Source of the DNA: Minisyncoccota bacterium
GTDB lineage: Bacteria > Patescibacteriota > Minisyncoccia > Phycocordibacterales > GWA1-40-21
Reading direction: 5' to 3'
DNA: 64,000 bases
Assembly: GCA_041663045.1 (NCBI GenBank)
Contig: JBAZRH010000002.1
Coordinates: 193,946 to 257,945, forward strand
Numbering within the stretch: position 1 is the stretch's first letter; each line of letters begins with the position of its first letter. The notes below the pieces were generated by a model. The model saw only the letters and a program-made list of their open reading frames with translations, did no database searches and was not told the origin of the DNA. The position numbers and the translations under genes were made by a program. Below are positions 22,229-57,313 of the stretch, piece after piece.

Positions 22229-22231
22229 TTG

Positions 22232-22297
22232 TCGGGGCGCAGGGATTTGAACCCTGACTATCCGCCTCAGGCGGAGATATTACCTATAATCACACCG
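22232..22297 (-). pseudogene. degenerate tRNA-like copy; its 3' 30 nt are identical to the tRNA-Pro 3' part
   Basis: 66 nt. T-arm and acceptor 3' strand (TAGTCAGGGTTCAAATCCCTGCGCCCCGA) are identical to tRNA-Pro. The 5' acceptor strand CGGTGTG still pairs, but the anticodon arm is a 6-bp stem with a 3-nt loop (TCCGCC-TGA-GGCGGA). Confidence 0.55.
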
Positions 22298-22318
22298 ATA
22301 CCTTTTCTATCTTTATGG

Positions 22319-22389
22319 TCGGGGCGCAGGGATTTGAACCCTGACTACATGCTCCCAAAGCATGGATGCTACCGTTACACCACGCCCCG
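22319..22389 (-). tRNA. tRNA-Pro (anticodon UGG)
   Basis: Acceptor CGGGGCG/CGCCCCG, D-stem GTGT/GCAT, anticodon stem CATGC/GCATG with loop TTTGGGA, T-arm CAGGGTTCAAATCCCTG. Confidence 0.85.
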
Positions 22390-24523: not shown

Positions 24524-24595
24524 TGCGCTCGGCAGGACTCGAACCCGCAACAACAGTTCCGAAGACTGTTGTGATATCCATTTCACCACGAGCGC
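24524..24595 (-). tRNA. tRNA-Arg (anticodon UCG)
   Basis: Acceptor GCGCTCG/CGAGCGC, D-stem GTGA/TCAC, anticodon stem ACAGT/ACTGT with loop CTTCGGA, T-arm GCGGGTTCGAGTCCTGC. Confidence 0.85.
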
Positions 24596-24756
24596 AATAT
24601 TAAACTCCCCCATTAGGATTCGGTCACGACTTTTGCTCGGCCGTCGCCATCGCAAAGTCTCGACCCCGACTCGCTTCCAATCCTGCTGGCTTAGGGCCCG
24701 CTCCGTCCTTTAAATCTTTCGCAAGTAAAGACTTTTACTTGCTTTCTAAGATTTAA
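24596..24756 (-). repeat. GC-rich tRNA-associated structured element (family member)
   Basis: In tRNA orientation it contains GGAAGCGAGTCGGGGTCGAGAC, a stem-loop CTTTTGC-GATGGCGACGGCCGAG-CAAAAG, and ends GTGACCGAATCCTAATGGGGGAG; G+C far above flanks. Confidence 0.6.
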
Positions 24757-24809
24757 ACCCACAACAACAGTTCCGAAGACTGTTGTGATATCCATTTCAC
24801 CATGGGAGC
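24757..24809 (-). pseudogene. partial tRNA copy: D-arm and anticodon arm identical to tRNA-Arg(UCG), with a different 5' acceptor strand and no T-arm
   Basis: 41 nt identical to the tRNA-Arg body; acceptor 5' strand GCTCCCA. The element's terminal AATGGGGGAG could pair with it. Confidence 0.55.
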
Positions 24810-24896
24810 ATTTCATCATAATACGCTAAATTGGCTAAAAATCAAAAAACAATTTTGTTTTTTTATAAAATTGTGTATAATACAAAAAGTAAATTT

Positions 24897-34159: not shown

Positions 34160-34945
34160 ATGAATTTTGAAATGCCACCAAAAGAGACCTTGGAAAAAGA
34201 TATGCTTGCGAAAGTGAAGGATAGTATTCCTACTGGCCAAGAATGGCGTGTCGGGCAACTTTTGAAATGTGAAATAATTGTGAAGGCGGGGGCCAAGCTT
34301 ACTGTTACAGAAATGGCCGCAAAAAATAAAATCATTGTCGAGGAGGGGGGCGAGCTTGAAATTACAGGACAAGATTTGGTCAATGAAATAACGAGGGGTG
34401 GGCAAGTTGAAACAGCATCTGCGCAGGAAGAGAAAACCGAAACACCCATGCAACCGCAAAATAATGAGGTGCAAAAAGATTCGGTGGCTATACCGGAGAA
34501 TATGTCTGAACATGATAGGAGAATGCTTGATATTAGCAGAAAAGAGGTGGAGACAATACTAGGGATGACCCCCGAAGGACTCACCAAGATGGAGAAAGTC
34601 GCTGATATGATTAAGAAAATGCCATTAATTCAGAATGCAATGGTTATTGAAGGCCTTACAAGTTCTGGAGCTATCGATAAAAAGATTGGGGCAGATTTCA
34701 TTATTGCAGAATATAATCTAAGAGTTGATTTGGCATTGAAGATTTTACAATGGCCAGACTCCGCTAGGGAGACAGTAGAGACTTTATTAGGGGCTGATGG
34801 TAAGGATCCTAATAAACGTGCAATAGAAACGTACGTGAGTGATAAGAAAAAGATGGATGATTTTCTTAAAACCGGTGTAAATAATGGATTGGATCAGTAC
34901 CAAGTAATGGCATTAAATGAGATCAGAAAGGAAAAGGGGCTTTAA
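34160..34945 (+). CDS. hypothetical protein
   Basis: 261 aa, acidic, no clear motif. Confidence 0.45.
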   Translation: MNFEMPPKETLEKDMLAKVKDSIPTGQEWRVGQLLKCEIIVKAGAKLTVTEMAAKNKIIVEEGGELEITGQDLVNEITRGGQVETASAQEEKTETPMQPQNNEVQKDSVAIPENMSEHDRRMLDISRKEVETILGMTPEGLTKMEKVADMIKKMPLIQNAMVIEGLTSSGAIDKKIGADFIIAEYNLRVDLALKILQWPDSARETVETLLGADGKDPNKRAIETYVSDKKKMDDFLKTGVNNGLDQYQVMALNEIRKEKGL

Positions 34946-34953
34946 ATGAGGGG

Positions 34954-34982
34954 TTGCAAATATTGGGCAGATATGCTACAAT
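34954..34982 (+). promoter_or_regulatory. promoter of rpsO with extended -10; near-leaderless
   Basis: TTGCAA (34954-34959), 17 nt spacer, TGcTACAAT ending at 34982, 9 nt before the ATG. Confidence 0.45.
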
Positions 34983-34991
34983 CTCCCCACA

Positions 34992-35255
34992 ATGCTTACA
35001 AAGATAAAGAAACAAAAAGTCATCGCCGAACACGCTATGCACGATACAGACACAGGTTCTCCTGAGGTCCAGATAGCTATGCTTACGAAGAAAATCGAGG
35101 AATTGACCAAACATTTGAAGAAAAATGCCAAGGACAATCACTCAAGAAGAGGTCTTCTAGGTATGGTGGCAGACAGACAGAAACATATGAAATATTTGGC
35201 AAAGAACTATCCAAAAAGGCATTCAGCGATAGCAAAGAAGACGGGACTAAAGTAA
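34992..35255 (+). CDS. rpsO: 30S ribosomal protein S15
   Basis: HDTDTGSPEVQIAMLTKKI...DNHSRRGLLGMV. Confidence 0.9.
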   Translation: MLTKIKKQKVIAEHAMHDTDTGSPEVQIAMLTKKIEELTKHLKKNAKDNHSRRGLLGMVADRQKHMKYLAKNYPKRHSAIAKKTGLK

Positions 35256-35367
35256 TTTAAACAAAAATCCGCCTCGAGCGGATTTTTGTTTATTTTATCG
35301 TGTTATAATGTAAGTAGGTCGGTATTATTAATTTTATAATAAAGAGCGGGGTAGTTGTATCGATTTA

Positions 35368-35464
35368 CCCCAGTGAAGTATCCGCCTATGGCGGAGAAAT
35401 CTTAAAAGATTTCACTTCACGGGGTGATGATTTTTATATTCACTTCGCTCATTAAAAATCAATC
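35368..35464 (+). promoter_or_regulatory. duplicated structured upstream module (copy 1), abutting the NYN gene start
   Basis: CCCCAGTGAAG...CTTCACGGGG stem, then TGATGATTTTTATATTCACTTCGCTCATTAAAAATCAATC-ATG; the 3' 47 nt are identical to 43829..43875 apart from two a/g swaps. Confidence 0.5.
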
Positions 35465-35989
35465 ATGTCAGTAATAAAACACAAAAATCAGAGAGTTGGG
35501 ATTTTTATAGATACACAAAATTTATATCATTCAGCTAAGAATCTGTATGGAGCCAAGGTCAACTTCGGCCAAGTCGTCAAAGACGCATTGGATGGAAGAG
35601 TTTTGATCAGAGCGACAGCATATGTCATCACCACAGAATCTGGAGACGAGAAAAGCTTTTTCGAAGCTCTTGGTAAGGTTGGTATCACGACAAAGACAAA
35701 AAATCTACAGATTTTCCCCGGTGGAGCCAAGAAAGCAGACTGGGATGTCGGTATGGCGATAGATGCTATATCACTTTCAGCAAAAGTGGATGCAGTGGTC
35801 TTGATCACAGGCGACGGAGACTTTATTCCGCTTGTAGAATATTTGAAAATCAAACAAGGATGCCAAGTGGAAGTAGTTTCCTTTGGTAAATCAACATCAG
35901 CCAAGCTCATAGAAGCCGTAGATGGCTTTATGGATTTGGATGTAAATCCGAGAAAATATTTGCTAGGGACGGGAGGGGGGAAGAGGTAG
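35465..35989 (+). CDS. NYN-domain (LabA-like, PIN-fold) protein
   Basis: RVGIFIDTQNLY...VVLITGDGDF. Confidence 0.75.
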   Translation: MSVIKHKNQRVGIFIDTQNLYHSAKNLYGAKVNFGQVVKDALDGRVLIRATAYVITTESGDEKSFFEALGKVGITTKTKNLQIFPGGAKKADWDVGMAIDAISLSAKVDAVVLITGDGDFIPLVEYLKIKQGCQVEVVSFGKSTSAKLIEAVDGFMDLDVNPRKYLLGTGGGKR

Positions 35990-36057
35990 GCACAGATTCA
36001 AGATTCAAGAATAAAAAAACAGCCGAAGTTCACCATGGTGCACTTCGGCTGATTGGT

Positions 36058-36450
36058 TTATGGAGTATTTGTTCCCCTTATAATTTTTTGTGGTACTATC
36101 AAAACCATACTTACTCCTCTTGGACCTGGAAATCTAGGATTACACACGAACCAAAATCTCTTGTGAAAGGTCATCTCCTCATCACAATGACTATAGATAC
36201 CTTTTGGTAGATTTCTATTGCCGAACAGTATTATGTATTTACCACTGCCAATCAAACCAATAGTAGCAAATGATCTCTTGGTGCCGAATGCCGATGAATT
36301 TCGACGGATTATCGAGAGATAACTACCGCTACATGGATCGAGATTTATACTAATGAGTTTTTGCCTGACCTCTTTGACTCCATGCATAATCTTCTCAAAA
36401 TTAACAAGATAAAATACTTTTCTGCCAAATCGATATTTTATTTTTTTCAT
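36058..36450 (-). CDS. hypothetical protein
   Basis: 130 aa, immediately downstream of leader copy 3. Confidence 0.4.
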   Translation of the reverse strand: MKKIKYRFGRKVFYLVNFEKIMHGVKEVRQKLISINLDPCSGSYLSIIRRNSSAFGTKRSFATIGLIGSGKYIILFGNRNLPKGIYSHCDEEMTFHKRFWFVCNPRFPGPRGVSMVLIVPQKIIRGTNTP

Positions 36451-36548
36451 TTTTTCTCCTTTTGTTAAAGAACATTTAGAAAAGTCCTATACTTTCCTAC
36501 AAACTCACCACTTTTTTGTTTTAGTGATGAGTTTGATGAGAAGGGGAA
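36451..36548 (-). promoter_or_regulatory. conserved structured 5' leader, copy 3 of 3 (minus strand)
   Basis: Reverse complement CCCCTTCTCATCAAACTCATCACTAAAACAAAAAAGTGGTGAGTTTGTAGGAAAG...TTCTTTAACAAAAGGAGAAAAA-ATG; preceded by a hairpin at 36543..36563. Confidence 0.5.
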
Positions 36549-36585
36549 CCACAGGCGTTCCCCGAAGTGAAACTCGGCTGATGTG

Positions 36586-37143
36586 TTATCCACGGAAGTA
36601 GTGCCTTTCAAGCTCCTTCCCATACTTCCATACTTTGCATAGAACATCCAAAGCGCATTTAAACTCTAATCCAGATATCGTCTCGGTGTCAACCTTATGA
36701 CTGGCCCATCCTGCAATTCTGCTCAACTTTTTGCCTTCTCCTATTTTAATCTCCATGATCTGCGCCCATCTGGAGGCAAAGCGAAGCATTCCCATCATCT
36801 CTCTTTTATTTGTTTCGACGATTTCTGCCCAAAGATTCTTGTTACGAACTTTGAATGGTACAATGCCTTGTGCAATGGCTTTCCTCTTGAGCCTTAAGTA
36901 TTTTCTGTCCTCAGCTTTTTCCTTGAGGATTTCTGCTCTCCCTTCCGGAGATCTTCCCCATTCTTTTTCATAGTTTCTCACTATGGATTTAACACTACTA
37001 CCTTTTGGGTGAGCAGTAACAATGATTCCATTGAACCTTATACAGACAGAGTTATTGAGCTTTTTTGCCCTCCCAATCATCTTTCTTGCTAGAGAATATA
37101 GATTGTCTCCATAATCGCAGAAACCCCTCTTGAGATGTCTCAT
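36586..37143 (-). CDS. hypothetical protein
   Basis: 185 aa; translationally coupled (ATGA overlap) to the upstream small Cys-rich ORF. Confidence 0.45.
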   Translation of the reverse strand: MRHLKRGFCDYGDNLYSLARKMIGRAKKLNNSVCIRFNGIIVTAHPKGSSVKSIVRNYEKEWGRSPEGRAEILKEKAEDRKYLRLKRKAIAQGIVPFKVRNKNLWAEIVETNKREMMGMLRFASRWAQIMEIKIGEGKKLSRIAGWASHKVDTETISGLEFKCALDVLCKVWKYGKELERHYFRG

Positions 37144-37319
37144 AACCTTCCTCCTTTTTTCATTTCTTTCATTAAGTGGCGAATTTCTTTCAGTTCACGT
37201 TTCCTTGCACAGCCCGGACAGGCACATGTGCAATGTCTATCACAATGTGTGCCTGATTCCATGCAAAAGTGAAAAGTCTTGCGTTTGCATTTCTTAGGAC
37301 AGTTTTCCTTGCCCTTCAT
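37140..37319 (-). CDS. small Cys-rich protein (59 aa), not in the ORF track
   Basis: MKGKENCPKKCKRKTFHFCMESGTHCDRHCTCACPGCARKRELKEIRHLMKEMKKGGRL; AAGGAGG Shine-Dalgarno sequence for the downstream gene lies in its 3' end. Confidence 0.35.
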   Translation of the reverse strand: MKGKENCPKKCKRKTFHFCMESGTHCDRHCTCACPGCARKRELKEIRHLMKEMKKGGRL

Positions 37320-37504
37320 AATATACTCCTTACCTATTTTGCTTTATTAACGAACGCTTTTTTGACTAAGCACCTTGCTTAATCTTTCTGTATATAGTGT
37401 AGTTTGCTTTTATAAAATAGTCCAAAATGTCGTCAATATACATAAACCTTGCATAAATATGCCTATTATGATAGTATTTATGTTGTCGACTGTATCGACA
37501 GAAT

Positions 37505-38269
37505 ATGGAAAATAATCATTACATTGAGATATTGAAGGAAATCGGGCTATCAGAGCATGAAAGTGCAGTGTATTTTACTATGGTTTCCCTTGGTCCTTCA
37601 CCAGTGCTTAAGATCGCCAGAACTTCAGATGTAAAAAGGACTACAATCTATTCGGTTATTGATTCATTGAAAGAGAAGGGTCTTGTCAGGGTAGAACTGA
37701 AAGGTTTCAAAAGTCTTTTTGTTGCCGAAAGTCCGGAAAAGCTGGAGGGAATACTTGAACAGAGAAAAAATAAATTCAAAAAGCATTTGCTCGACTTTAT
37801 GCAGATTTATAATAAAGGTGGTGGCGAGTCTCTTATCAAAATCTATGAAGGACTTGAAGCGGTGAAGGGGGTATACGAGAGTTTGATAAATGATATAAAA
37901 AATGGAGAAGATTATCTGATTGTATCCGATGCAGAGAAATGGTTTGCACTTGATAGAGATTATTTTATGGATTTTACCGAAAGGAGATCTAAATTACCGA
38001 TAAAGATAAGAATGCTTATTCAAGATAATGAAGATGCTCAATATTTAAAAAAATATCAGAAAAATTTTAACTATACGACGAGGATTTTGCCAAAAGAGAC
38101 AAAACTCACGACGAATTTGATCGTAACTCCGCAAAAAGCCGTGGTGCACCAGCTCGTTCCGCCGATAATGGCTATTGTGATTGAAAATAAAAATATTATC
38201 AAAATGCATCAAGAGATGTTTGAGGTGATGTGGAAGTCGCTCGAAGATAAGGAAAGTGTGGGGGATTAG
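37505..38269 (+). CDS. TrmB-like transcriptional regulator
   Basis: wHTH ILKEIGLSEHESAVYFTMVSLGPSPVLKIARTSDVKRTTIYSVIDSLKEKGLV. Confidence 0.55.
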   Translation: MENNHYIEILKEIGLSEHESAVYFTMVSLGPSPVLKIARTSDVKRTTIYSVIDSLKEKGLVRVELKGFKSLFVAESPEKLEGILEQRKNKFKKHLLDFMQIYNKGGGESLIKIYEGLEAVKGVYESLINDIKNGEDYLIVSDAEKWFALDRDYFMDFTERRSKLPIKIRMLIQDNEDAQYLKKYQKNFNYTTRILPKETKLTTNLIVTPQKAVVHQLVPPIMAIVIENKNIIKMHQEMFEVMWKSLEDKESVGD

Positions 38270-38397
38270 TATGGGGAAATACAAAGAGGGGTTTTTGCTT
38301 CGCAAAAACCCCTTTGTATTTTGTCCACATCTTATGTATTGACAATGTAATGACATTGTATATACTTATATTGTTATTGAGATAATTAATAAATAAT

Positions 38398-38667
38398 ATG
38401 ACTACAACAGTTCAAATAAGAATAGATGACAAAATAAAAAAGGAAATTCACAAACTTTATAAAAGTCTTGGTTTAGATATTTCTTCTGCTACGAAGATGT
38501 TTTATAGTCAGTCTTTGATGATGAAGGGTATTCCTTTTCAACCAAGAACCGCGAATGGTTTTACTCCTGAATATGAGGCTAGGATTATAAAGGAAACTGA
38601 ATGGGCAGAAAAACATGGTAAAAGATACAAAACTGTTGAGGAAATGTTTAAAGCATTAAATAAATAA
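38398..38667 (+). CDS. dinJ: type II antitoxin, RelB/DinJ family
   Basis: 89 aa; VQIRIDDKIKKEIHKLYKSLGLDISSATKMF. Confidence 0.6.
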   Translation: MTTTVQIRIDDKIKKEIHKLYKSLGLDISSATKMFYSQSLMMKGIPFQPRTANGFTPEYEARIIKETEWAEKHGKRYKTVEEMFKALNK

Positions 38668-38668
38668 T

Positions 38669-38947
38669 ATGCTCGAACTAGTATTTTCTAGACAGTATAA
38701 AAAGGCTTTCAAGAAAGTTATGAGATCAGGGAATTTCGACAAAGATAAATTAATGATATTAGTGGGGATATTAATGAAAGAGGAAAAATTAGATGAAAAA
38801 TACAAAGATCATGCACTAAATGGACCGCTTTCGGAGTACAGGGATTGTCATGTCTGTAATGATTTAATCTTAATATACAAAGTTAATAAAACTCTGGGGA
38901 CACTAACCCTTTCAAATATCGGCAGTCATTCGGATTTGTTTGAATAG
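38669..38947 (+). CDS. yafQ: type II toxin, YafQ family (RelE-like mRNA interferase)
   Basis: 92 aa; YKDHALNGPLSEYRDCHV..DLILIY collinear with YafQ; gene 1 nt after the dinJ stop. Confidence 0.65.
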   Translation: MLELVFSRQYKKAFKKVMRSGNFDKDKLMILVGILMKEEKLDEKYKDHALNGPLSEYRDCHVCNDLILIYKVNKTLGTLTLSNIGSHSDLFE

Positions 38948-38999
38948 GCGAGAGCATAAGAAAAAAACAACCGAAGTTCGCCATGGCGAACCTCGGTTG

Positions 39000-39392
39000 T
39001 TATGTTGTCTGTTTGGGCCATTTTGGACTTTTCACCGCCCATTCTATCTCATACATTGCATGTATATGAGACCAATATCTTCCTCCACATGCGGTACATC
39101 GCCATACAAAGGCTCCAAGATCCCAACAGATGTCTGCTCTCCATGGGGGATCGGTTGTGTAACCCACAACTCTTTCCATGAAATCTCTTGACCCACTATC
39201 TTGGTGACAATGTGGACATTGGTTCGGTCCGTGATCCTCTTTTCCAGTACAGCCTTCTCCCCAAGTGTTCAGCTGAGCTAAAAGCTCGGGATCGACTTCC
39301 TGTCTTGTTTCTAATGTCATAAAAAGACCTCCTTTTTCTAAATTGATACTACTACGACAATATCTAATTGTCAAATTTATAAAAATAAACAA
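39000..39392 (-). CDS. hypothetical Cys/His-rich protein (G+C above flanks)
   Basis: CPHCH...CTAC putative zinc site; probable start MTLETRQ. Confidence 0.4.
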   Translation of the reverse strand: MFIFINLTIRYCRSSINLEKGGLFMTLETRQEVDPELLAQLNTWGEGCTGKEDHGPNQCPHCHQDSGSRDFMERVVGYTTDPPWRADICWDLGAFVWRCTACGGRYWSHIHAMYEIEWAVKSPKWPKQTT

Positions 39393-39630
39393 TCGTGCTA
39401 ATATAAAGGCGGAAAATTGCTATCGGCCGAACAAATTCTTATTTGTTTTAGGCCACAATTTTCCGCCTTTTAGTAGTGTGTTTGGTCTCTAAATAAGCAG
39501 GTTTTATCCGCCTTAGGTGGATTGATCTGAAATTTGGAGAGCAAACTATAATTTTCTGGATTCCAGCCTCCCCAGTGAAATAACAAATCAAATTTCACGG
39601 GGCAAGTCACCGGAATGACAGAGTAAAAAT

Positions 39631-41769
39631 ATGATAAAAAAAGAATTCTCAATGGAGCTCAACGGCAAGAAATTGTCGGCGGAGTTCAATGACCTTGTGG
39701 AGAATGCACATGGGTCTGTTTTGCTTAGATACGGAAATACAGTTATCCTCGCGACAGCTGTTATTTCAAAGGAGCCAAAAATGGGGGGCGATTATCTTCC
39801 GCTCACGGTAGATTATGAAGAAAAGTTTTATGCCTCAGGACAGATTCTTGGTAGCCGATTTATGAAGAGAGAAGGTAAACCTTCTGACGAAGCTATTTTG
39901 TCTGGTCGCGTGGTAGATAGGACTATCCGCCCGCTTTTTGACCAATGGATTCGAAATGAAATACAAGTGGTGGTCACGATTCTCTCCATTGAGGAGGATG
40001 ATCCAGATGTACTTGGAGTTGTCGCCGCGTCTCTTGCTCTTGGAGTTTCAAAGATTCCATTCCACGGGCCAGTTTCAGCTGTCAGAATCGGCAAACACAA
40101 AGCAGATGGTTTCCAAGTAAACCCAACATATACAGAAAGAGAAAATGAAAATTATGAAATTGACCTTATCGCCTGCGGAAAAGACGGAAATATAAATATG
40201 ATAGAGCTTGGCGGAGATGAAGCCCAGGAAAATGTGATCGTGGATGCCATGGAAAAAGCATCTGAAGAAATTGAAAAAATAAATGAATGGCAGAAGTCCG
40301 TCATAAAAGAAATCGGTGTTCAAAAACTTTCTATTCCAGCTCCGGTGATGCCAGAAGAAGTGAAAAAACTTTTTGCAACAGAAATTGAACCAAAACTCGA
40401 AAGCTATGTAATGAGTGGTATTCCTGGCGGGTCAAAAATAGGAGAAATAATGGATATTTGGATGAAACTTGCAGAAGAAAAGCTTCCTGAAGTTGATTCG
40501 CATTTTGCCGAATCTTTATTTGAAGGAAAAGTGGACGAAATGATACACGAGCAGGCTTTGAAAAATAATAAAAGAGCAGATGGAAGGGGAATAGATGAGC
40601 TCCGACCTCTTTTTGCACAAGCTGGCGGGATTTCGCCGATACTTCATGGCTCTGGAATATTTTACAGAGGAGGAACACATATTCTTACCGCACTAACACT
40701 TGGTGGGCCAAGCGATGCACAGATAATAAACGGTATGGAAGAGAGTAATGATGCAAAAAGATTTATGCACCATTACAATTTCCCTCCATATTCAACAGGT
40801 GAAACAGGTAGAATGGGTGGAACAAATAGAAGAATGATCGGTCATGGAGCCCTCGCAGAAAAAGCCCTTGAGCCAATGATTCCAAAACAAGATAAATTCC
40901 CTTATACGATAAGGCTTGTTTCTGAAGCGATGTCTTCAAACGGCTCGACTTCGATGGGATCTGTTTGTGCTTCCACAATCGCTCTTATGGATGGAGGAGT
41001 GCCGATAAAAGCACCTGTTGCTGGTATTGCATCAGGTCTTATGATGGATGATAAAGGGAATTATAAAGTGCTTACGGATATTCAAGGCCCAGAGGATCAT
41101 TATGGAGATATGGATTTTAAAGTTGCGGGGACAAAGAGCGGTGTCACAGCGATACAAATGGATGTGAAAGTTTCTGGTGTACCTATTCCAGCTCTTGCCG
41201 AAGCATTTGAAAAAGCAAAGGCAGCGAGATTAAAAATATTGGATGTCATCTTGAAAGCAATCCCTGAATCAAGGAAAGATATTGCTTCGAGTGCGCCAAA
41301 GATTTTGGTTATAAAGATTAAACAAGAACAAATCGGTGGAATAATCGGTAGCGGTGGAAAGACGATTAAAGAAATAAAAGAAAAAACTGGTGCAGATATT
41401 GATATTGAAGATGACGGCACTGTGTATTGTACTGGAAAAGACGGCTCTGCAGAAAAAGCAAAGAAAATTATTGAGGGGATGACCCATGAATACAAAGCGG
41501 GGGAGAGATATGAGGGAGAGGTTGTGAAGATCACTGAATTCGGAGCTTTCGTGAAGATTGGGTATAACACCGAAGGTCTTGTGCATATTTCTGAAATTGC
41601 GCCTTTCAGAGTGGACAGAGTTGAGAAATATCTGAGAGTTGGGCAGAAGGTGCCGATCATGGTGAAGGGTATAGATGAAAGAGAGAGGGTAAGTCTTTCT
41701 ATCAAAATGGCGGATCCGAAATTGTTTAGTGCGCCAGCTGCGGCTACGCCGATACCGCCAGCGAAATAA
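39631..41769 (+). CDS. pnp: polyribonucleotide nucleotidyltransferase
   Basis: Two RNase PH domains, KH (IGGIIGSGGKTIKEI) and S1 domains; 712 aa. Confidence 0.95.
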   Translation: MIKKEFSMELNGKKLSAEFNDLVENAHGSVLLRYGNTVILATAVISKEPKMGGDYLPLTVDYEEKFYASGQILGSRFMKREGKPSDEAILSGRVVDRTIRPLFDQWIRNEIQVVVTILSIEEDDPDVLGVVAASLALGVSKIPFHGPVSAVRIGKHKADGFQVNPTYTERENENYEIDLIACGKDGNINMIELGGDEAQENVIVDAMEKASEEIEKINEWQKSVIKEIGVQKLSIPAPVMPEEVKKLFATEIEPKLESYVMSGIPGGSKIGEIMDIWMKLAEEKLPEVDSHFAESLFEGKVDEMIHEQALKNNKRADGRGIDELRPLFAQAGGISPILHGSGIFYRGGTHILTALTLGGPSDAQIINGMEESNDAKRFMHHYNFPPYSTGETGRMGGTNRRMIGHGALAEKALEPMIPKQDKFPYTIRLVSEAMSSNGSTSMGSVCASTIALMDGGVPIKAPVAGIASGLMMDDKGNYKVLTDIQGPEDHYGDMDFKVAGTKSGVTAIQMDVKVSGVPIPALAEAFEKAKAARLKILDVILKAIPESRKDIASSAPKILVIKIKQEQIGGIIGSGGKTIKEIKEKTGADIDIEDDGTVYCTGKDGSAEKAKKIIEGMTHEYKAGERYEGEVVKITEFGAFVKIGYNTEGLVHISEIAPFRVDRVEKYLRVGQKVPIMVKGIDERERVSLSIKMADPKLFSAPAAATPIPPAK

Positions 41770-41779
41770 ACACTCACTC

Positions 41780-41874
41780 AATACCGCCCTTTTTGGAACA
41801 CGCATAATTTTCTGCTGAAAATTTGCTCCCTCTCATGCCGTCGCATTCCGAGAGTTTCCAAAAAGGGCGGTATT
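41780..41874. repeat. 19-bp perfect inverted repeat with 57-nt spacer downstream of pnp
   Basis: AATACCGCCCTTTTTGGAA ... TTCCAAAAAGGGCGGTATT, followed by a second terminator hairpin at 41891..41925 and TATAAT at 41931-41936. Confidence 0.6.
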
Positions 41875-41953
41875 TCGTTCATTAACTAAATTCAGGCGGG
41901 TTTGGCTTCGCCAAACCCGCCTGAATTTAGTATAATATAGTTGATAAACTACC

Positions 41954-43006
41954 ATGAATCCAGAAGATCAAAAAGTTGAAGAAAATAATGTATCTCCGGA
42001 AGTCAAAAGTGCTGTCTCCAGCGAACTTTCTTCTTATATGAACCCTCATCTAAGTACAGACATACCTACAGCTTCTCAATCAACACCAATAGGATCCATA
42101 AATACCAACGCGCCATTTATTGAGCAACAAGGTATAAAGTCTAAACCCATGATCAGGACTTTTAAAAGTGATGTAGAAGAGACAATACAGTCCCAACATC
42201 TCTCTTCTATAAATATTGCTCTTGCTGAAAACAAAAAGATGATGGAAAGAATACAAAATGCCGAGTTTGAACAAAAAACAGCAAAGAAGAATTATACTAT
42301 TTTAATAATCAGTACAATATTTATTGTGGGTGGCATCTTGGCATTTGCTGTACCATACTTTTTGGTAAATAGACAAAACACAGCTCCGGTTGTGCAGGTA
42401 AAATCAACAATGATAATAACTCCAGATCTTGATGAAAAGATAAATGTGGATGGATTAAATTTAGATAGAATCGCCTCTACTTTGTCTGAAAGAGTAGAAC
42501 AATCGTCAATACGACTTGGAGGTATTAAAAATCTTTATCTTACCGAAGGTCAAGCTGTAAATGAAAAGACTATAGATACTACAAAATTCTTATATCTTAT
42601 AAAATCACACACTCCCCCTGAAATACTGAGGACATTAAAACCTGAATATATGTTTGGAATGCATAATTTTAATGGAAATCAGAGATTTCTGATATTAAAA
42701 GTAGGTTCCTACGAAAATTCTTTCTCTGGGATGCTTGCTTGGGAGACAAATCTTTGGTCAGATTTTAAGACCTTATTTGCATTACCCACGATTATACAAA
42801 GCGGTCAGATAAAAGGTATTGAAATAGCGACATTTCAAGATGCGATATATAGTAATAAAGATAGCCGTGTAGTAAAAAATTCTTCCGGAAACATTATGTT
42901 CCTATATTCGATAATAGATAAAGATACTATTGTTATTACTACGAATACAAAAACTTTGAATGAAATAATTTCAAGAAGCTTGAAAGCACAGACGGTTACA
43001 CAGTAG
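41954..43006 (+). CDS. hypothetical single-pass membrane protein
   Basis: 350 aa; one TM helix at ~115-140. Confidence 0.5.
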   Translation: MNPEDQKVEENNVSPEVKSAVSSELSSYMNPHLSTDIPTASQSTPIGSINTNAPFIEQQGIKSKPMIRTFKSDVEETIQSQHLSSINIALAENKKMMERIQNAEFEQKTAKKNYTILIISTIFIVGGILAFAVPYFLVNRQNTAPVVQVKSTMIITPDLDEKINVDGLNLDRIASTLSERVEQSSIRLGGIKNLYLTEGQAVNEKTIDTTKFLYLIKSHTPPEILRTLKPEYMFGMHNFNGNQRFLILKVGSYENSFSGMLAWETNLWSDFKTLFALPTIIQSGQIKGIEIATFQDAIYSNKDSRVVKNSSGNIMFLYSIIDKDTIVITTNTKTLNEIISRSLKAQTVTQ

Positions 43007-43041
43007 TTGCTCGTATTATTTAATCTGATACAATTTCTTAT

Positions 43042-43401
43042 ATGAATATAGATACAAAAAGATATAAATTACAGTTGGAAAAAGAGTTTAAACTTGTAGA
43101 AGGTGAACTTAGAGCGATAGGGAGAAAGAATCCTTCAAACCCAGCCGACTGGGAAGCGGTTGAGACAGAAATAGATTCTGATCATGCAGATGTAAATGAT
43201 GTGGCAGACAATATTGAAAGTTACGAGGAGAATCGTGCCGTATTGTCTAAACTAGAGAATCAGTACAATGATATCAAAGATGCGCTGAAGAGAGTTGCTG
43301 ACGGTACTTACGGCAAGTGTAGTGTTTGCGGGGAAGAAATTCCAGAGGCAAGACTAGAAGCGAATCCGAGCGCGAAGAATTGTATAAAGCATACGAAATA
43401 A
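43042..43401 (+). CDS. DksA/TraR-family C4 zinc-finger protein
   Basis: CSVCGEEIPEARLEANPSAKNCIKH. Confidence 0.7.
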   Translation: MNIDTKRYKLQLEKEFKLVEGELRAIGRKNPSNPADWEAVETEIDSDHADVNDVADNIESYEENRAVLSKLENQYNDIKDALKRVADGTYGKCSVCGEEIPEARLEANPSAKNCIKHTK

Positions 43402-43452
43402 TATTTAAAATACAATGGGGGGCGCGAAGCGCCCCCCCATTGTATTTTTCTT

Positions 43453-43767
43453 TTACATTGGAAAATCATCCAACATTCCATCCCCAACCATTTGTCTTTC
43501 CAGATTATCTTTTGCCTTTTTAGCCGATTCAATATTAGCCTTAATCGTTGATGTATCTTTTTTATCTCTTATCGCTTTTAATAAAGCCATTTCTAAATCA
43601 ATAATCTCTCTATTTACAGTAATAAGAGATTTCTCTATTCTCTCTCTTTCTTCAGCATCTGGCAATTTTGTCCCGACTTCTTCATTCATAATACAACTAT
43701 AATAACTCTTATATAAAATATAGGCAAATCCACTTTTATATATGATATAATATTTCTTGTTATTCAA
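43453..43767 (-). CDS. hypothetical coiled-coil protein
   Basis: ORF, ~80-104 aa. Confidence 0.35.
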   Translation of the reverse strand: MNNKKYYIIYKSGFAYILYKSYYSCIMNEEVGTKLPDAEERERIEKSLITVNREIIDLEMALLKAIRDKKDTSTIKANIESAKKAKDNLERQMVGDGMLDDFPM

Positions 43768-43795
43768 TTTAATTGAAGCGGATTTATCCGATCAA

Positions 43796-43875
43796 CCCCA
43801 GTGAAATATGCCATCTACGTCGGCATTTCACGGGGTGATGATTTTTATATTCGCTTCACTCATTAAAAATCAATC
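43796..43875 (+). promoter_or_regulatory. duplicated structured upstream module (copy 2), abutting the comM/yifB start
   Basis: CCCCA-GTGAAAT-AT-GCC...GGC-ATTTCAC-GGGG hairpin then TGATGATTTTTATATTCGCTTCACTCATTAAAAATCAATC-ATG. Confidence 0.5.
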
Positions 43876-45477
43876 ATGTCCTTTGCAAAAACTTTTAGCG
43901 CACAGACCGTCGGTTTGGGTGCAGAAATTATTGATGTAGAAGTTGATTTATCAAAAGGTTTACACTCCTTCTCTATTGTGGGCCTCGGAGATAAAGCAGT
44001 AGAAGAGTCACGTGATAGAGTTTCGGCTTCTATTAAAAATTGCGGTTACAAATCTCCTAAAAATAAGAATCAGAAAGTTGTTGTTTCACTAGCTCCAGCA
44101 GATGTTCGCAAAGAAGGTCCGGCTTTTGACGTAGCCATATCACTTGCATACCTTTTGGCGGATGGGGAGATCAAATTTGATTCAAAGAAGAAACTTTTTC
44201 TTGGCGAGCTTTCTCTTGATGGCAAACTTAGGAAAATAAATGGCGTTTTGCCGATTGTGGCAGAGGCAAAAAGGCGAGGTTTTGAGGAGGTCTTTTTGCC
44301 AAAAGAGAATACAAAAGAAGCAGCGCTAGTCTCTGATATAAATATTTATGGTGCAGAAAATCTGGGGCAGATAATCGGCCACTTGGATGAAGGCGATGCT
44401 CCAAGAAAAGGGAAGTCAAGAGAAATTGACCCAGAGACTTTTGAAGCAGAAGATGAATTTATTTCGCAGAAAATAAATCCAGAACCGCAGACAGAGATTC
44501 TCGTAGAAGAAGACGAAGCTATAATAGATTTTAGTGAAATCAAAGGTCAGGAAACTGCCAAAAGAGGGCTTGAAATAGCCGCCGCTGGCGGACACAATAT
44601 CGCTATGTATGGGCCACCGGGGACAGGCAAGACAATGCTTGCAAAAGCATTTAGTCATATTCTTCCACCACTTTCTTTCGATGAAATACTGGAGATAACA
44701 GCCATACATTCTGTGTCTGGAAATCTGAAAAAAGATATTATTTCGAAACCTCCCGTCCGCGCACCACATCATACCTCTTCTTATGTTTCACTTGTCGGTG
44801 GAGGCACAGTGCCAAAGCCTGGGGAGGTGACACTTGCTCATGGCGGAGTGCTTTTCTTGGATGAATTTCCAGAATTTGATAGGAAAGTTATTGAAGCACT
44901 CCGTGAACCACTTGAAGAAGGGGAGATCACTATCTCTCGTGCCCGAGGTTCACATGCTTTCCCTGCCAATTTTATTCTCATCGCCGCCATGAATCCGTGC
45001 CCTTGTGGAAACTTTGGCTCAAAGACAAAAGAGTGTATTTGTAAGCCGACAGATTTGCTTCGATATCAGAGGAAAATCTCTGGGCCGATAGTGGACAGAA
45101 TAGATATGTGGGTGGAAGTCTCGCAGATAAATTATGAAAAGCTCGGTGAGAAAGAAAATATTAAAAAAGAGACGGCCGATATAAAAAAGAGGGTGACAAA
45201 AGCGAGAGAAATCCAAAAAGAGAGATTTACTGCTGGAAAGAGAAAAATTCGCACAAATAGCGAAATGGAAGCCAAAGATATTTTGAAACTTGCCGACTTG
45301 GAAGACAAAGCTAAAGGTATTTTAATTTCTTCCGCAAGAAAGCTAGATCTTTCTGCTCGTGCATATCACAGGGTTATAAAACTCGCGAGAACCATTGCTG
45401 ATCTTGAAGGGAGTGAAAGTATAAAGACAAATCATATCTTGGAGGCGTTGCAGTATAGGCCGAAGAGGAATCAATAA
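43876..45477 (+). CDS. comM: Mg-chelatase-like AAA+ ATPase YifB/ComM
   Basis: N-terminal Lon-like domain, Walker A GPPGTGKTML, C-terminal Mg-chelatase region. Confidence 0.85.
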   Translation: MSFAKTFSAQTVGLGAEIIDVEVDLSKGLHSFSIVGLGDKAVEESRDRVSASIKNCGYKSPKNKNQKVVVSLAPADVRKEGPAFDVAISLAYLLADGEIKFDSKKKLFLGELSLDGKLRKINGVLPIVAEAKRRGFEEVFLPKENTKEAALVSDINIYGAENLGQIIGHLDEGDAPRKGKSREIDPETFEAEDEFISQKINPEPQTEILVEEDEAIIDFSEIKGQETAKRGLEIAAAGGHNIAMYGPPGTGKTMLAKAFSHILPPLSFDEILEITAIHSVSGNLKKDIISKPPVRAPHHTSSYVSLVGGGTVPKPGEVTLAHGGVLFLDEFPEFDRKVIEALREPLEEGEITISRARGSHAFPANFILIAAMNPCPCGNFGSKTKECICKPTDLLRYQRKISGPIVDRIDMWVEVSQINYEKLGEKENIKKETADIKKRVTKAREIQKERFTAGKRKIRTNSEMEAKDILKLADLEDKAKGILISSARKLDLSARAYHRVIKLARTIADLEGSESIKTNHILEALQYRPKRNQ

Positions 45478-46058
45478 GAACTCCCTCGCATCACCACTTT
45501 TCTGTGCGGAGAATTTCCCAGCGGAAATTCTCCTAATCCTCGGCGGTTTCCGTCGTGGTATACTTTTGTTTCAAGACATACTTTCAACAAAATTACACCA
45601 CGCCGTACCGGCAAACTCGCCTGCGGACACAGAAAAGTGGTGATACTCGGTCGTAGACTTGCAGATACTGAGAAGTGTTCTGATTTTACTTGGGGTTCTC
45701 GGCAATGATGAAAAATGGTGATATTCGCTCGCTTACAGAATTTGGAGGTCTCTCCTCTCTGGTAATTTTGCCTGCCCCGTAGTGAGCTTGCTCTACTACT
45801 TGGGGAGGTGAGACCTCCGAATTGCCACCCCTAACAAAAATATTTTCAATGCAAATCCTCGCTCGCTTATGGAGGGGCAAATCCCTTGACGCACTGTCAT
45901 AATATGATATGCTTTTATATAGATTTATAGCTCCTTGAAAGATAGTGAGATTAGATTTTTGTGACCAAAATATTGGTTATAAAAATCTAATCTCATTAAA
46001 AAAGAGACAAGACGCTAACGTCAGAGCGAAATCTGGCATAACGCAGAAGAAAGAAAGG

Positions 46059-50476: not shown

Positions 50477-50563
50477 GGAAGAGTGGCTGAGTGGTTTAAA
50501 GCACCGGTCTTGAAAACCGGAGGGCTCGCAAGGGTCCCGTGAGTTCGAATCTCACCTCTTCCG
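50477..50563 (+). tRNA. tRNA-Ser (anticodon UGA), long variable arm
   Basis: Acceptor GGAAGAG/CTCTTCC, anticodon stem CCGGT/ACCGG with loop CTTGAAA, variable arm GGGCTCGCAAGGGTCCC, T-arm GTGAGTTCGAATCTCAC. Confidence 0.85.
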
Positions 50564-50584
50564 CATTAACAAAAAATGCCGATA

Positions 50585-50777
50585 ATAAATATCGGTATTT
50601 TTTGTTAACTATGCGAAAGCTTGCCGAGATTCGAACGGCGGAGCACACGGAGCGAAGCGGAGTCTGTCGCGAGCACGCGACAGGCACGAGCCGGTGCCCA
50701 ACCCGAATCCGAGCGACGGCGAGGATGAGAGGTGCGGGCGAATCTCACCTCTTCCGCATTAACAAAAAATGCCGATA
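50585..50777 (+). repeat. GC-rich tRNA-trailing element ending in an exact 38-nt copy of the tRNA-Ser 3' end plus terminator
   Basis: Direct repeat GAATCTCACCTCTTCCGCATTAACAAAAAATGCCGATA at 50547..50584 and 50740..50777. Interior contains antisense GAGATTCGAAC, hairpins CTGTCGCG-AGCA-CGCGACAG and GGCAC-GAGCCG-GTGCC, and ATCC-GAGCGACGGCGAG-GGAT. Confidence 0.65.
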
Positions 50778-50802
50778 TTTATTATCGGTGTTTTTTGTTT
50801 TG

Positions 50803-55516: not shown

Positions 55517-55589
55517 GGGCGATTAGCTCAGTTGGTAGAGCGCTTCATTTACACTGAAGATGTCACAGGTTCGAGTCCTGTATCGCCCA
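55517..55589 (+). tRNA. tRNA-Val (anticodon UAC)
   Basis: Acceptor GGGCGAT/ATCGCCC, D-arm GCTCAGTTGGTAGAGC, anticodon stem CTTCA/TGAAG with loop TTTACAC, T-arm ACAGGTTCGAGTCCTGT. Confidence 0.85.
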
Positions 55590-55742
55590 CAGGCAAAAAG
55601 AGGGCAAATGCGAAAACTTGAAGTATTTGTTCTCTTTTTGGCTAATGATACAGGATTCGAAAGACGGAACACGACGGTGTGAGTCGGGGTCGCAGGATTT
55701 TCTAGCAGGAAAATACCTGTGACCGAGTCCTGTATCGCCCAC
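55590..55742 (+). repeat. GC-rich tRNA-trailing element ending in a 19-nt exact copy of the tRNA-Val 3' end
   Basis: Antisense GATACAGGATTCG (55647..55659); GGTGTGAGTCGGGGTCGCAGG; junction CTGTGACCGAGTCCTGTATCGCCCAC (55717..55742) then TTTTTT-ATG of rluA. Confidence 0.65.
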
Positions 55743-55748
55743 TTTTTT

Positions 55749-57162: not shown

Positions 57163-57311
57163 CAAAATAAGCAAATTTATTTGCTTATGTAATTGGGGAC
57201 GAGAAAACCGGAGCGATGCCGAGCCAGCAGGCGAGGCCGTGAGGCGGGGTCGAGAGTTTTTGTGAGCGACGGCGAACAAAAAACTTGTGACCGAGTCCTC
57301 TCCCGTGCACA
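57163..57311 (+). repeat. GC-rich tRNA-trailing element ending in a 20-nt exact copy of the tRNA-Leu 3' end
   Basis: Terminator-like hairpin at 57165..57188; CCGTGAGGCGGGGTCGAGAG; hairpin AGTTTTTGT-GAGCGACGGCGA-ACAAAAACT (57255..57284); junction TTGTGACCGAGTCCTCTCCCGTGCACA then ATT-ATG of the pduO-type gene. Confidence 0.65.
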
Positions 57312-57313
57312 TT

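Follow-up and report, generated by a model that had tools for sequence, protein, structure and literature searches.

The two repeated modules that precede the NYN-domain gene and comM in the window (the whole 64-kb stretch of DNA that was analysed) are best explained, with a probability of about 60%, as members of a mobile family associated with GIY-YIG genes. Both would be ORF-less, left-truncated and independently inserted copies that are co-transcribed with their host genes and supply a start region without a Shine-Dalgarno sequence.

An earlier note had described a repeated structured module at these positions, and both copies were located. A covariance model of the element family matched the 64-kb window at two places only, 35333-35476 (copy 1, 87.5 bits) and 43763-43887 (copy 2, 78.7 bits), and both copies stop exactly at an ATG (Table 1). 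They are direct repeats about 8.4 kb apart, as had been stated; the repeat search gave 57 ungapped nt of 95% identity at a spacing of 8411 nt. The window contains exactly two instances each of the 24-mer CACGGGGTGATGATTTTTATATTC and the 20-mer CTCATTAAAAATCAATCATG, compared with 0.00 to 0.02 expected from shuffles. From CACGGGG to the base before the ATG, 45 of 47 nt are identical, which corrects the earlier count of 47 of 49.

The hairpin closed by CCCC/GGGG and the compensatory change from G-C to A-U in its inner stem are real and were read in both copies (CCCC-A-GUGAAG.../...CUUCAC-GGGG in copy 1 and CCCC-A-GUGAAA.../...UUUCAC-GGGG in copy 2), but the outer helix had been overlooked. This helix pairs GAGCGGGGU with ACUUCGCUC in copy 1 and UGAAGCGGAU (43774-43783) with AUUCGCUUCA (43849-43858) in copy 2. 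The two copies differ on the 3' side by A/G at 35442/43853 and G/A at 35447/43858, each opposite a complementary base, indicating, together with the outer helix, that each copy forms one long irregular hairpin. The MFE fold of copy 1 is one long hairpin (-50.1 kcal/mol, z -7.0), and that of copy 2 is a long hairpin at 43768-43867 (-37.1 kcal/mol, z -4.6). The A-rich tails are unpaired in the full predicted folds of the window copies, and the 14-nt tail of copy 1 is identical before comM and before unrelated genes of other genomes.

Table 1. Element copies, their parts, and the neighbouring promoters and host genes in the window.
Feature	Position	Strand	Description
Extended -10 box TGTTATAAT	35301..35309	+	Likely native NYN promoter; 5' of copy 1, outside the element
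Element copy 1	35344..35464	+	121 nt, between native 5'UTR and NYN start codon
Copy 1 outer 5' arm GAGCGGGGU	35344..35352	+	P0-apex/P1 strand remnant; MFE pairing with 35442-35450; family consensus GAGCGAAGCGA
Copy 1 P2	35368..35424	+	CCCC-A-GUGAAGU...ACUUCAC-GGGG, branched interior; P2 covaries family-wide
Copy 1 P3 module	35425..35465	+	5' strand UGAUGAUUUU 35425-35434; conserved core/loop 35435-35454
Copy 1 P3 3' strand AAAAUCAAUCA	35455..35465	+	Last base is the A of the ATG
Copy 1 tail ATTAAAAATCAATC	35451..35464	+	A-rich, without Shine-Dalgarno sequence, element-borne; adjoins ATG at 35465
NYN-domain gene	35465..35989	+	Host of copy 1; Pfam PF01936, E = 1.3e-33
Extended -10 box TGATATAAT	43743..43751	+	Likely native comM promoter; 5' of copy 2
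Element copy 2	43768..43875	+	About 102-108 nt; left edge uncertain, 43768 to 43774
Copy 2 P2	43796..43835	+	CCCC-A-GUGAAAU...AUUUCAC-GGGG
Copy 2 P3 module and tail	43836..43876	+	3' strand runs to the A of the comM ATG (43876)
comM/yifB, Mg-chelatase-like AAA ATPase	43876..45477	+	Host of copy 2; Pfam PF01078, E = 5.8e-91

The window ComM is 100% identical to a protein of a Candidatus Paceibacterota MAG. Four relatives whose ComM is 83-88% identical to it (L135, L136, L137 and L139) lack the element at both the NYN and the comM site, and the covariance-model search of these four gave no copy. The NYN gene follows rpsO in all relatives examined, and the order rpsO-NYN-...-pnp-ORF-dksA-comM is kept in the element-less relatives. 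The promoters upstream of the host genes are of the TGnTATAAT type; the NYN -10 box, followed by gtaag(t/c)aggtcg, is kept in all four relatives, and the comM -10 box is kept in L136. The retained synteny and promoters and the missing element indicate that both window copies are lineage-specific insertions.

These empty sites also bear on the interpretation in the earlier note, which is partly supported. There the modules were taken as a native promoter and leader with a terminator-attenuator and a -10 box, duplicated as a recombination junction of an accessory block. The leader role holds: in both genes the 5' leader ends with this duplicated, structured module on the transcribed strand, and compensating differences maintain its stem pairing. 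As a whole, this explanation is very improbable and largely refuted already. The likely promoters precede the module and persist in relatives without it. Only in copy 1 does the internal TATATT, together with a -35, give a weak promoter match (9 of 12), and the family has no conserved -35. The stable GC-closed hairpin does have a U-run 6 nt past its stem, but that run is inside the long hairpin, and the terminator scan made no call there. The element is also found inside essential operons (rplN-rplX, rplW-rplB, rpsK-rpsD and pheS-pheT), where termination would be harmful. The two direct repeats 8.4 kb apart could suggest recombination junctions, but gene order across this interval is kept without them; variable genes are confined to the NYN-pnp interval, and in L139 rpsO, NYN and pnp are contiguous. 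The earlier note had pictured a case against itself in which relatives lack both copies and the copies match the ends of a mobile element. The relatives do lack both, but each window copy is a complete, small element inserted independently and not one end of a shared element. A Shine-Dalgarno sequence is absent at both ATGs, as had been noted, but this is the rule in the genome, since only 15 of the 74 window ORFs have one and 59 do not. The native upstream regions in the host are A/T-rich and resemble the element tail.

Further copies, for which the earlier note had proposed a search, were found outside the window. An exact 21-mer of the core is present at 14 loci in about 10 MAGs of Patescibacteria. 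More than 100 metagenome contigs also have exact cores, and a 25-nt degenerate core was located at no fewer than 120 metagenome loci. A private promoter/terminator module was rejected on this distribution, with cores located before unrelated genes. A real ORF of matching orientation directly follows the core in 60 of 63 unique class-1 copies. The ATG is located 5 nt past the core in 49 of the 63 and at 0-8 nt in 62. The downstream genes include dnaK, rplB, rplX, rpsD, rpsL, pheT, serS and pilB, and the occupied operon junctions differ by genome (rplN-rplX, rplX-rplE, rplW-rplB, rpsK-rpsD and pheS-pheT). One MAG has two junctions with identical P2 sequences, both coinciding with contig ends. 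The core also occurs in related 54-nt and tRNA-linked units, which have no ATG, and some of these are antisense to neighbouring genes.

The full family fold consists of the covarying hairpins P0, P2 and P3 followed by the A-rich tail; the window copies lack P0. The 5' strand of P0 often contains the stop codon of the upstream gene, and the 3' strand of P3, an A-U-rich helix, reaches the A of the host AUG. P3 is 97.4% paired across 46 copies, with compensatory changes at 4 pairs. Such changes were detected at 11 of 12 pairs in P2, the length of which varies from 26 to 282 nt, and at 10 of 12 in P0, where one pair occurs as GC, CG, UA and AU. An extended helix between the P0 and P3 apices, P1, is the predicted thermodynamic optimum and is 82.7% paired, compared with 35-48% in slid controls, but its covariation support is below that of P0 and P3.

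These alternative pairings, both above slid controls, might reflect a cis-regulatory RNA leader that hosts recruited, for example as an RNA thermometer or a translational switch, and for which mobility would be secondary. The exclusive folds, P0 plus P3 or extended P1, would then control access to the start codon, with temperature, a factor or upstream-gene translation as the signal. The inclusion of the A of the AUG in P3 is consistent with this, as are the mostly highly expressed housekeeping genes downstream and the many copies before dnaK; between orthologous dnaK loci, identity is 71-94% in the element and 46-68% at third codon positions. This explanation is nevertheless unlikely. The hosts are functionally unrelated (NYN, comM, GIY-YIG, pilus, ribosomal protein and aminoacyl-tRNA synthetase genes), and the element is sporadic among close relatives and at operon junctions. 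The key positions covary inside P0 and P3 and not across P1, no junction resembling a ligand pocket is conserved, P2 is highly variable in length, and comparison with Rfam gave no matching family.

The content of P2 points to a mobile element. Long P2 inserts of 241-282 nt (L001/L019/L096, L024 and L102) hold a UPF0213-type GIY-YIG ORF, indicating inserted DNA rather than a native promoter or terminator. The 5' strand of P3 begins with the stop codon of this ORF (UGA or UAA), which faces the host AUG across the base of P3. At four other loci (L012, L004, L067 and L002) a GIY-YIG gene adjoins an element copy, and free-standing GIY-YIG genes are flanked by 22-24-nt CCCCC/GGGGG inverted repeats. 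The element-associated ORFs match Pfam GIY-YIG, and their closest solved structures are the UPF0213 proteins BH0048 (PDB 1ZG2) and EF2693 (1YWL), a family that they match with E = 5e-6 and 3e-4. Counted from the conserved ATG, the nuclease has 72-95 aa, which comprise the catalytic domain without a DNA-binding domain. To our knowledge, UPF0213 proteins consist of the catalytic domain only, the family has no assigned function, and transposase or homing activity is not known for its members. The tie of UPF0213 to a specific inverted-repeat cassette, seen here, was not found in the literature searched.

Whether the hairpins act as RNA or only as DNA was also considered. In P2, P3 and the mini-hairpin, the gene strand has 15 G.U pairs and 45 A.C mismatches; G.U pairs are thus not the more numerous, indicating no RNA-specific signature in the helices. 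The P3 apex is predicted to fold better on the opposite strand. The element could be a DNA-only repeat without an mRNA role, like REP/REPIN or IS200/IS605-type hairpins, in which a nuclease or transposase recognises single-stranded or cruciform DNA and start-codon abutment is a target preference only. The overall sequence is palindromic, and its apex is GCGAAGC, a motif that forms very stable ssDNA mini-hairpins. The P3 apex complements the P0 apex, which places the same hairpin at both ends on opposite strands, and the core units without an ATG would also fit. This alternative appears quite improbable, however, since class-1 orientation follows the downstream gene with fixed ATG spacing, the P0 and P3 stems have opposite A-run/U-run polarity unlike a simple inverted repeat, the GIY-YIG stop and host start codons are opposed at the P3 base, and none of the copies was seen to adjoin a Y1/RAYT gene.

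The closest known systems include the Neisseria Correia elements (CREE) and further bacterial MITEs that are co-transcribed. These are short, non-coding, multicopy intergenic inverted repeats, often located just 5' of genes and co-transcribed with them as long hairpins that affect or preserve expression, and their orthologous sites can be filled or empty. The present element would share these traits but belongs to another phylum and shows no sequence similarity. Correia elements duplicate a TA target and lie at variable distances from genes, whereas here no clear target-site duplication was found and start-codon spacing is fixed. The coding relatives of the present element carry a GIY-YIG gene instead of a DDE transposase.

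In group I introns a peripheral loop can encode a GIY-YIG homing endonuclease, and the seg genes are free-standing GIY-YIG genes between phage T4 genes. Similarly, the terminal loop of a conserved structured element here contains the GIY-YIG ORF, ORF-less forms keep the structure, and insertion occurs between essential genes, presumably with expression retained. However, an Rfam Intron_gpI search of the window gave no match, and the element lacks a group I catalytic core and can be as short as about 100 nt. Its presence at many non-homologous sites resembles transposition more than homing. REP/REPIN sequences (with RAYT transposases) and IS200/IS605-derived palindromes, which are thought to move as single-stranded DNA, likewise form hairpins and are repeated between genes and within operons. 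They follow no orientation or start-codon rule. The present element is larger, with three hairpins, and none of the copies examined has an associated HUH/Y1 transposase gene. In the split ribosome-binding site of phage T4 gene 38 and the cauliflower mosaic virus ribosome shunt, a stable hairpin joins distant mRNA sites, much as a helix base here brings the stop codon of the upstream or GIY-YIG ORF close to the start codon that follows. Those are single, non-mobile loci, and shunting or reinitiation at the present element is hypothetical.

We propose that each window copy entered between an existing promoter/5'UTR and the start codon of NYN or comM. The complete element comprises, from 5' to 3', P0, P2 of variable length (CCCC.../...GGGG), P3, which extends to the A of the host AUG, and the A-rich tail. 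The P2 arms form the termini of a UPF0213-type GIY-YIG nuclease gene nested in the element, and short P2 forms, as in the window, most plausibly arose from this gene by deletion, as MITEs do from autonomous elements. At the DNA level the element spreads, possibly through the GIY-YIG protein, which may mobilise it, and through hairpin or cruciform ends. At the RNA level it would be transcribed with the host gene into a compact fold, and its tail may serve as a ready-made translation-initiation region without a Shine-Dalgarno sequence. In operons the hairpins would keep the upstream stop and downstream start codons close, perhaps allowing bridged coupling, so that host-gene expression could survive the insertion. 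This coupling does not apply to the window copies, since they lack P0.

The literature search found no paper on the element, which is apparently a widespread, so far undescribed mobile palindromic element of Patescibacteria. At dnaK, its long conservation is as compatible with a regulatory leader that benefits the host as with a tolerated parasite.

Both copies of the duplicated module in the window end directly at an ATG, that of the NYN-domain gene at 35465 (copy 1) and that of comM/yifB at 43876 (copy 2). A diagnostic 24-mer and a diagnostic 20-mer each occurred twice in the window against 0.00 to 0.02 expected, and the ungapped repeat between the copies is 57 nt long with 95% identity. The near-identity of the 3' ends described in the earlier note was confirmed, but its extent is 45 of 47 nt, from CACGGGG to the base before the ATG, rather than 47 of 49 nt. 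The G-C to A-U difference in the inner stem was also recovered. An outer helix had been overlooked, in which GAGCGGGGU (35344-35352) pairs with ACUUCGCUC (35442-35450) in copy 1 and UGAAGCGGAU (43774-43783) pairs with AUUCGCUUCA (43849-43858) in copy 2, and a complementary base lies opposite each of the two substitutions that separate the 3' halves of the copies. The outer helix and the compensating substitutions indicate that each copy is one long irregular hairpin. The predicted folding energies are -50.1 kcal/mol (z -7.0) for copy 1 and -37.1 kcal/mol (z -4.6) for copy 2, with only the last 11 to 14 nt and the AUG single-stranded in the full predicted fold.

No Shine-Dalgarno sequence precedes either ATG, as had been reported, but this is not special to the two genes, since the motif was found in just 15 of the 74 ORFs in the window. 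These Shine-Dalgarno-like motifs are mostly on apparently accessory genes. Many window ORFs, including many core genes, have a TGnTATAAT box 6 to 10 nt before the ATG, a sequence pattern that suggests widespread leaderless or very short-leader mRNAs in this genome.

The module had been interpreted as a native promoter/leader with an intrinsic terminator. When an intrinsic terminator was defined as a GC-rich stem-loop with a U-tract within 0 to 2 nt, a scan of 34900-45600 called no site at 35368-35436 or 43796-43847. The UUUUU starts 6 nt past the GGGG and, in the full fold, is either base-paired or enclosed by the hairpin, and in other genomes the element also lies between the cistrons of essential operons, which argues against termination. 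A sigma-70 promoter, taken as -35 and -10 hexamers 16 to 18 nt apart that are conserved where the function is conserved, was not supported either. Only copy 1 has a match (9 of 12 positions), its -35 position falls within the variable arm of the CCCC...GGGG hairpin (P2), which differs across the family, and stronger TGnTATAAT boxes lie upstream and are retained in relatives without the element.

Four related loci (L135, L136, L137 and L139, whose ComM is 88, 84, 83 and 84% identical, respectively, to that of the window) share the gene order xerC-like, rpsO, NYN, a further stretch, pnp, an ORF, a dksA-type zinc finger gene and comM. The NYN promoter box TGTTATAAT plus gtaagNaggtcg is kept in all four and the comM box TGATATAAT in L136, and the element is absent from both sites in all four. 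In L136 the NYN leader ends with aattaattttaataaatt and is followed directly by the ATG; in the window the 121-nt element stands between the same native sequence, attaattttataataaa, and the ATG. Both window sites are therefore polymorphic for an insertion. The last 14 nt are identical before NYN and comM, whereas the native leader ends of the two genes differ in the relatives, indicating that this tail belongs to the element. On this ground, the reading of the tail as native host sequence chosen by guide pairing was rejected for the window. We estimate a probability of about 0.85 that both window copies are inserted members of a mobile family.

The copies had further been proposed to be recombination junctions around an accessory block. 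Comparison of the rpsO-pnp interval in the relatives did not bear this out: rpsO-NYN-pnp is contiguous in L139, and the accessory genes (Tad4-like, TrmB, RelB/YafQ and others) are confined to the NYN-pnp interval. Since the variable genes occur only between NYN and pnp, the two copies do not delimit the variable block. One ORF of this block matched Pfam Tad4 with E = 5e-16; a match to this type I Thoeris inhibitor is unusual for a cellular Patescibacteria genome. The Tad4/TrmB/RelB-YafQ block is missing from L139.

That the module is duplicated was confirmed, and the search for further copies revealed its family in other genomes. The exact 21-mer GGGGTGATGATTTTTATATTC was found at 14 loci in about 10 Patescibacteria MAGs (labeled Paceibacterota, Saccharibacteria and others). 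In all 14 loci it is preceded by a CCCC...GGGG hairpin that differs in sequence and length, and between it and the ATG of the downstream gene stands RCTNNNYTCATTAAAAATCWATC; these genes differ (pheT, serS, rplB, rplX, rpsD, GIY-YIG and others). A second, independent pattern from the 3' part matched at least 120 metagenome loci. After de-duplication, 63 unique copies abutting a start codon (class 1) were obtained. The spacing from core to ATG is 5 nt in 49 of them and 0 to 8 nt in 62, and a real ORF in the same orientation lies downstream of 60; dnaK, rpsL and pilB/pilC-like genes recur there. With a covariance model built from 46 copies, the two copies of the window scored 87.5 and 78.7 bits, and no third copy was detected in the 64 kb. 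This model alone detected diverged copies in three loci, one of them lying past infA, in the operon region that also includes the rpsK|rpsD copy; because the exact patterns missed these, pattern-based copy numbers are underestimates.

Loci L003 and L013 differ in the presence of the element at rplN|rplX, and which junctions of a given ribosomal-protein operon carry it varies from genome to genome, with short A/T-rich spacers lacking the element at the neighboring junctions. One MAG has two copies with identical P2 (rplW|rplB and after rplX) and three contig ends inside them. The contig of the closest ComM relative, P0002 (89% identical), has its start 112 nt upstream of comM, possibly because the assembly broke at the repeat. 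A phage origin was rejected, as the core matched a single IMG/VR contig and nothing in the reference phage database.

The family has three hairpins, P0, P2 and P3 from 5' to 3', and then an A-rich tail. The 5' end of P2 is invariably CCC(C) and its 3' end (G)GGG, around an interior of 26 to 282 nt. Double-sided changes occur in 11 of the 12 basal P2 pairs, although P2 served to select the copies. P3, which had no role in choosing copies, is formed by UGAUGAUUUU and AAAAUCAAUCA with one bulged A, and its last pair takes the A of the AUG. It is 97.4% paired, with compensatory changes at four pairs (e.g., UA 24, AU 9, CG 8), and its apex is a mini-hairpin, R-C-UUC-G-Y, whose R and Y covary (AU 26, GC 14). 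On the left side of the element, P0 pairs AGAAAAAUA with UAUUUUUCU around the apex GA-GC-GAA-GC-GA. Compensatory changes were found at 10 of its 12 pairs, one of which occurs as GC, CG, UA and AU. The window copies retain P2, P3, the tail and a remnant of a P1 strand and lack P0.

The P0 apex is complementary to the P3 apex, so that the thermodynamic optimum of the consensus element is an extended P1-P2 hairpin (-46.9 kcal/mol, z -10). The P1 pairing is maintained at 82.7%, compared with 35 to 48% in slid controls. The variable positions covary inside P0 and inside P3 and not across P1, indicating that evolution best favors the three-hairpin fold, and P1 is possibly an alternative conformer. 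A regulatory switch between P0/P3 and P1, recruited by hosts and with a fourU-like P3 before dnaK, is likewise possible. At orthologous dnaK loci the element is 71 to 94% identical, compared with 46 to 68% at third codon positions, indicating that the placed element is constrained or is homogenized between copies.

Three other readings of the conserved parts were rejected. A leader peptide (ATG ATT TTT ... from GUGAUGAUU) shows substitutions without synonymous bias and stop positions that differ between copies, and the covariation of this stretch follows the P3 helix. In a hammerhead-like CUGAUGA core, UGAUGA is variable and part of P3. A split Shine-Dalgarno sequence (AAGGAG, P0 apex) is not a general feature, as this position varies among G, C, U and A, in covariation with its partner in P0.

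When every ORF of the collected loci was searched with a profile, 14 GIY-YIG ORFs were identified. Those associated with the element belong to the GIY-YIG superfamily (Pfam PF01541, E = 3e-7 and 8e-9), are of the UPF0213 type with structural matches to PDB 1ZG2 and 1YWL, and have weak similarity to the N terminus of group I intron endonucleases. Such an ORF is carried by relatives only and by neither window copy. It is present in every P2 with a 241- or 282-nt interior (L001/L019/L096, L024 and L102), and the family's own P0, P2 arms, P3 and tail are present in these copies. The nested ORF has its ATG in or just past the P2 5' arm and its C terminus encoded by the 3' arm. The P3 5' strand opens with its stop codon (GGG GTG A in L001, GGG TAA in L102), so that at the foot of P3 the U of the stop is paired to the A of the host AUG. 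Elsewhere the gene adjoins the element (L067 and L002) or stands between an element and a diverged element before the host gene (L012 and L004). Free-standing UPF0213 genes are bracketed by near-identical 22- to 24-nt CCCCC.../...GGGGG inverted repeats (ACCCCCACACCTTTyrTTTTAT...) and have a TATAAT box of their own, internal and about 9 nt upstream of the ATG; they resemble minimal inverted-repeat cassettes in their own right. Given these bracketed genes and the nested ORFs, the short P2 hairpins, including those of the window, are most plausibly what is left of a deleted GIY-YIG cassette, its two ends having been joined.

Locations of the element copies and associated features; L numbers are collected database loci
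Feature	Location	Context
Copy 1	window 35344-35464	before NYN-domain gene
Copy 2	window ~43768-43875	before comM/yifB
Tad4 match	window 36586-37143 (-)	variable block
TrmB regulator	window 37505-38269	variable block with Tad4 ORF
RelB/YafQ toxin-antitoxin pair	window 38398-38947	variable block with Tad4 ORF
tRNA 3'-end fragment pairs	window 50539-50606 / 50732-50799; 22231-22260 / 22318-22347	
tRNA 3'-end fragment sets	window 24542-24596 / 24756-24810; 55558-55593 / 55710-55745 / 57278-57313	
Diverged copies	L009 3949-4093; L012 2917-3099 and 579-700; L102 3521-3663	covariance model alone
Free-standing GIY-YIG genes	L067 1930-2265 and 2665-2985; L102 ~560-940; L002 ~6260-6600	
Class 2 units	L090 6887-6940; L134 ~810-1000; L037 45-69 and 675-699	
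Class 3 units	L054 590-700; L103, L071, L052, L056; L130 300-650	

The family is mobile, multi-copy and palindromic, with three covarying hairpins, a fixed abutment to the start codon in gene orientation and a nested or adjacent UPF0213 gene. It has most features of a MITE, save a demonstrable target duplication and a proven transposase. Copies are short and noncoding (about 100 to 190 nt) and numerous (2 in the window, 63 unique collected, at least 2 in several other loci or MAGs). The outer inverted repeat GAGCGAAGCGAcTATA / TATATTCGCTTCGCTC (82.7% paired) lies near the ends with the conserved tail outside it, the P2 arms are likewise inverted, and presence or absence differs at orthologous sites. 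No consistent direct repeat surrounds the copies, and A/T-rich flanks obscure any short duplication.

Under the tests that define these classes, the element did not qualify as a terminator, a sigma-70 promoter, an Rfam family, a group I intron or a REP/RAYT system. Only tRNAs in the window reached the Rfam gathering threshold, nothing matched the element even at E = 10, and the best subthreshold matches were unrelated and below half of the gathering score; the window and related loci together gave tRNA and rRNA only at gathering and permissive thresholds. A group I intron is expected to have a catalytic core (P3-P9), but there was no Intron_gpI match at the element, and minimal copies are about 100 nt. 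REP/REPIN-RAYT systems are defined by a Y1 (HUH) RAYT gene flanked by the repeats, whereas the ORFs beside the examined copies are host genes or GIY-YIG, with no RAYT/Y1 gene among them. The sole (weak) Y1_Tnp gene was seen in L135, a locus without a copy. The closest systems in behavior are the Neisseria Correia elements, which are cotranscribed MITEs, and group I introns that host GIY-YIG genes in a loop. A limited literature search found no description of the element, so its novelty is unproven; within it, we found no precedent for the start-codon rule, for the stop/start geometry at the hairpin feet or for the UPF0213 partner.

The element lies either past a promoter and before the ATG or between two genes of an essential operon, which suggests that it is cotranscribed with the host gene. 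Its A-rich tail is similar to the native sequences upstream of genes in these genomes and may serve as the translation initiation region. In about 10 intercistronic copies the upstream stop codon, mostly TAG, lies in the P0 5' strand, 33 to 36 nt before P2, and the start codon is at the 3' foot of P3, so that the hairpins would keep the two codons near each other. A ribosome translating the upstream or GIY-YIG ORF would open the hairpin that follows. We propose this expression and coupling mechanism tentatively. Spread of the element might be mediated by the GIY-YIG nuclease together with hairpin or cruciform ends; that the nuclease is the mobilizing enzyme is conceivable but somewhat short of an even chance. 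A wider interpretation, that UPF0213 nucleases mobilize an unrecognized class of tiny inverted-repeat cassettes that in Patescibacteria target the site directly 5' of start codons, with hairpin-bridged termination-reinitiation, for organisms that translate without Shine-Dalgarno sequences, is unlikely. Under it, ribosomes leaving the upstream ORF would reach the host gene either by way of the nuclease ORF or over the hairpin that remains of it, and the cassettes would bring their own stop-hairpin-start architecture.

A role at the DNA level, or a purely DNA-level reading, is kept alive by three observations. G.U pairs (15) do not exceed A.C mismatches (45) on the gene strand of P2, P3 and the mini-hairpin, which argues at most slightly against an RNA-only reading. 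The P3 apex is complementary to that of P0, and it is therefore the opposite strand on which it forms the more stable hairpin, of the GCGAAGC type. Related units carry the core without any ATG (L090, L134 and tRNA-array units).

Among these units, class 2 is a discrete 54-nt hairpin (mini-P2 plus P3, same core). The L090 unit is inside one copy of a 69-nt repeat whose neighboring copy is empty, those of L134 are in tandem, and those of L037 flank an antisense GIY-YIG gene. A tRNA-intron reading of class 2 was unconvincing on manual inspection. Class 3 units have the same core and occur in GC-richer contigs, where they lie between tRNA genes in antisense orientation, with no Rfam family match. 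In L130, three 149-nt tandem units follow tRNA-Met, and the tRNA 3' end is repeated at the close of each, in the manner of an attachment site. The window also has duplicated tRNA 3'-end fragments (Ser, Pro, Arg and the Val/Leu region), and ORFs at 20421(-), 22228(-), 55749(+) and 57314(+) begin just 4 to 6 nt past such a fragment. The fragments may be integration scars or tRNA-like processing sites yielding leaderless mRNAs.

If the proposed reading holds, it bears on annotation and assembly: MAG contigs break at these repeats, which could also pass for riboswitches, terminators or promoters. On the same reading, the widespread UPF0213 GIY-YIG proteins would have a genomic role, and the mobile element would follow an unusual rule, always abutting a start codon in gene orientation, even in ribosomal-protein operons. 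This rule, if true, would imply a new targeting mechanism or very strong selection for expression neutrality. The element would also be a natural portable module for Shine-Dalgarno-independent initiation and coupling, which may reveal how Patescibacteria and other organisms lacking Shine-Dalgarno sequences start internal cistrons.
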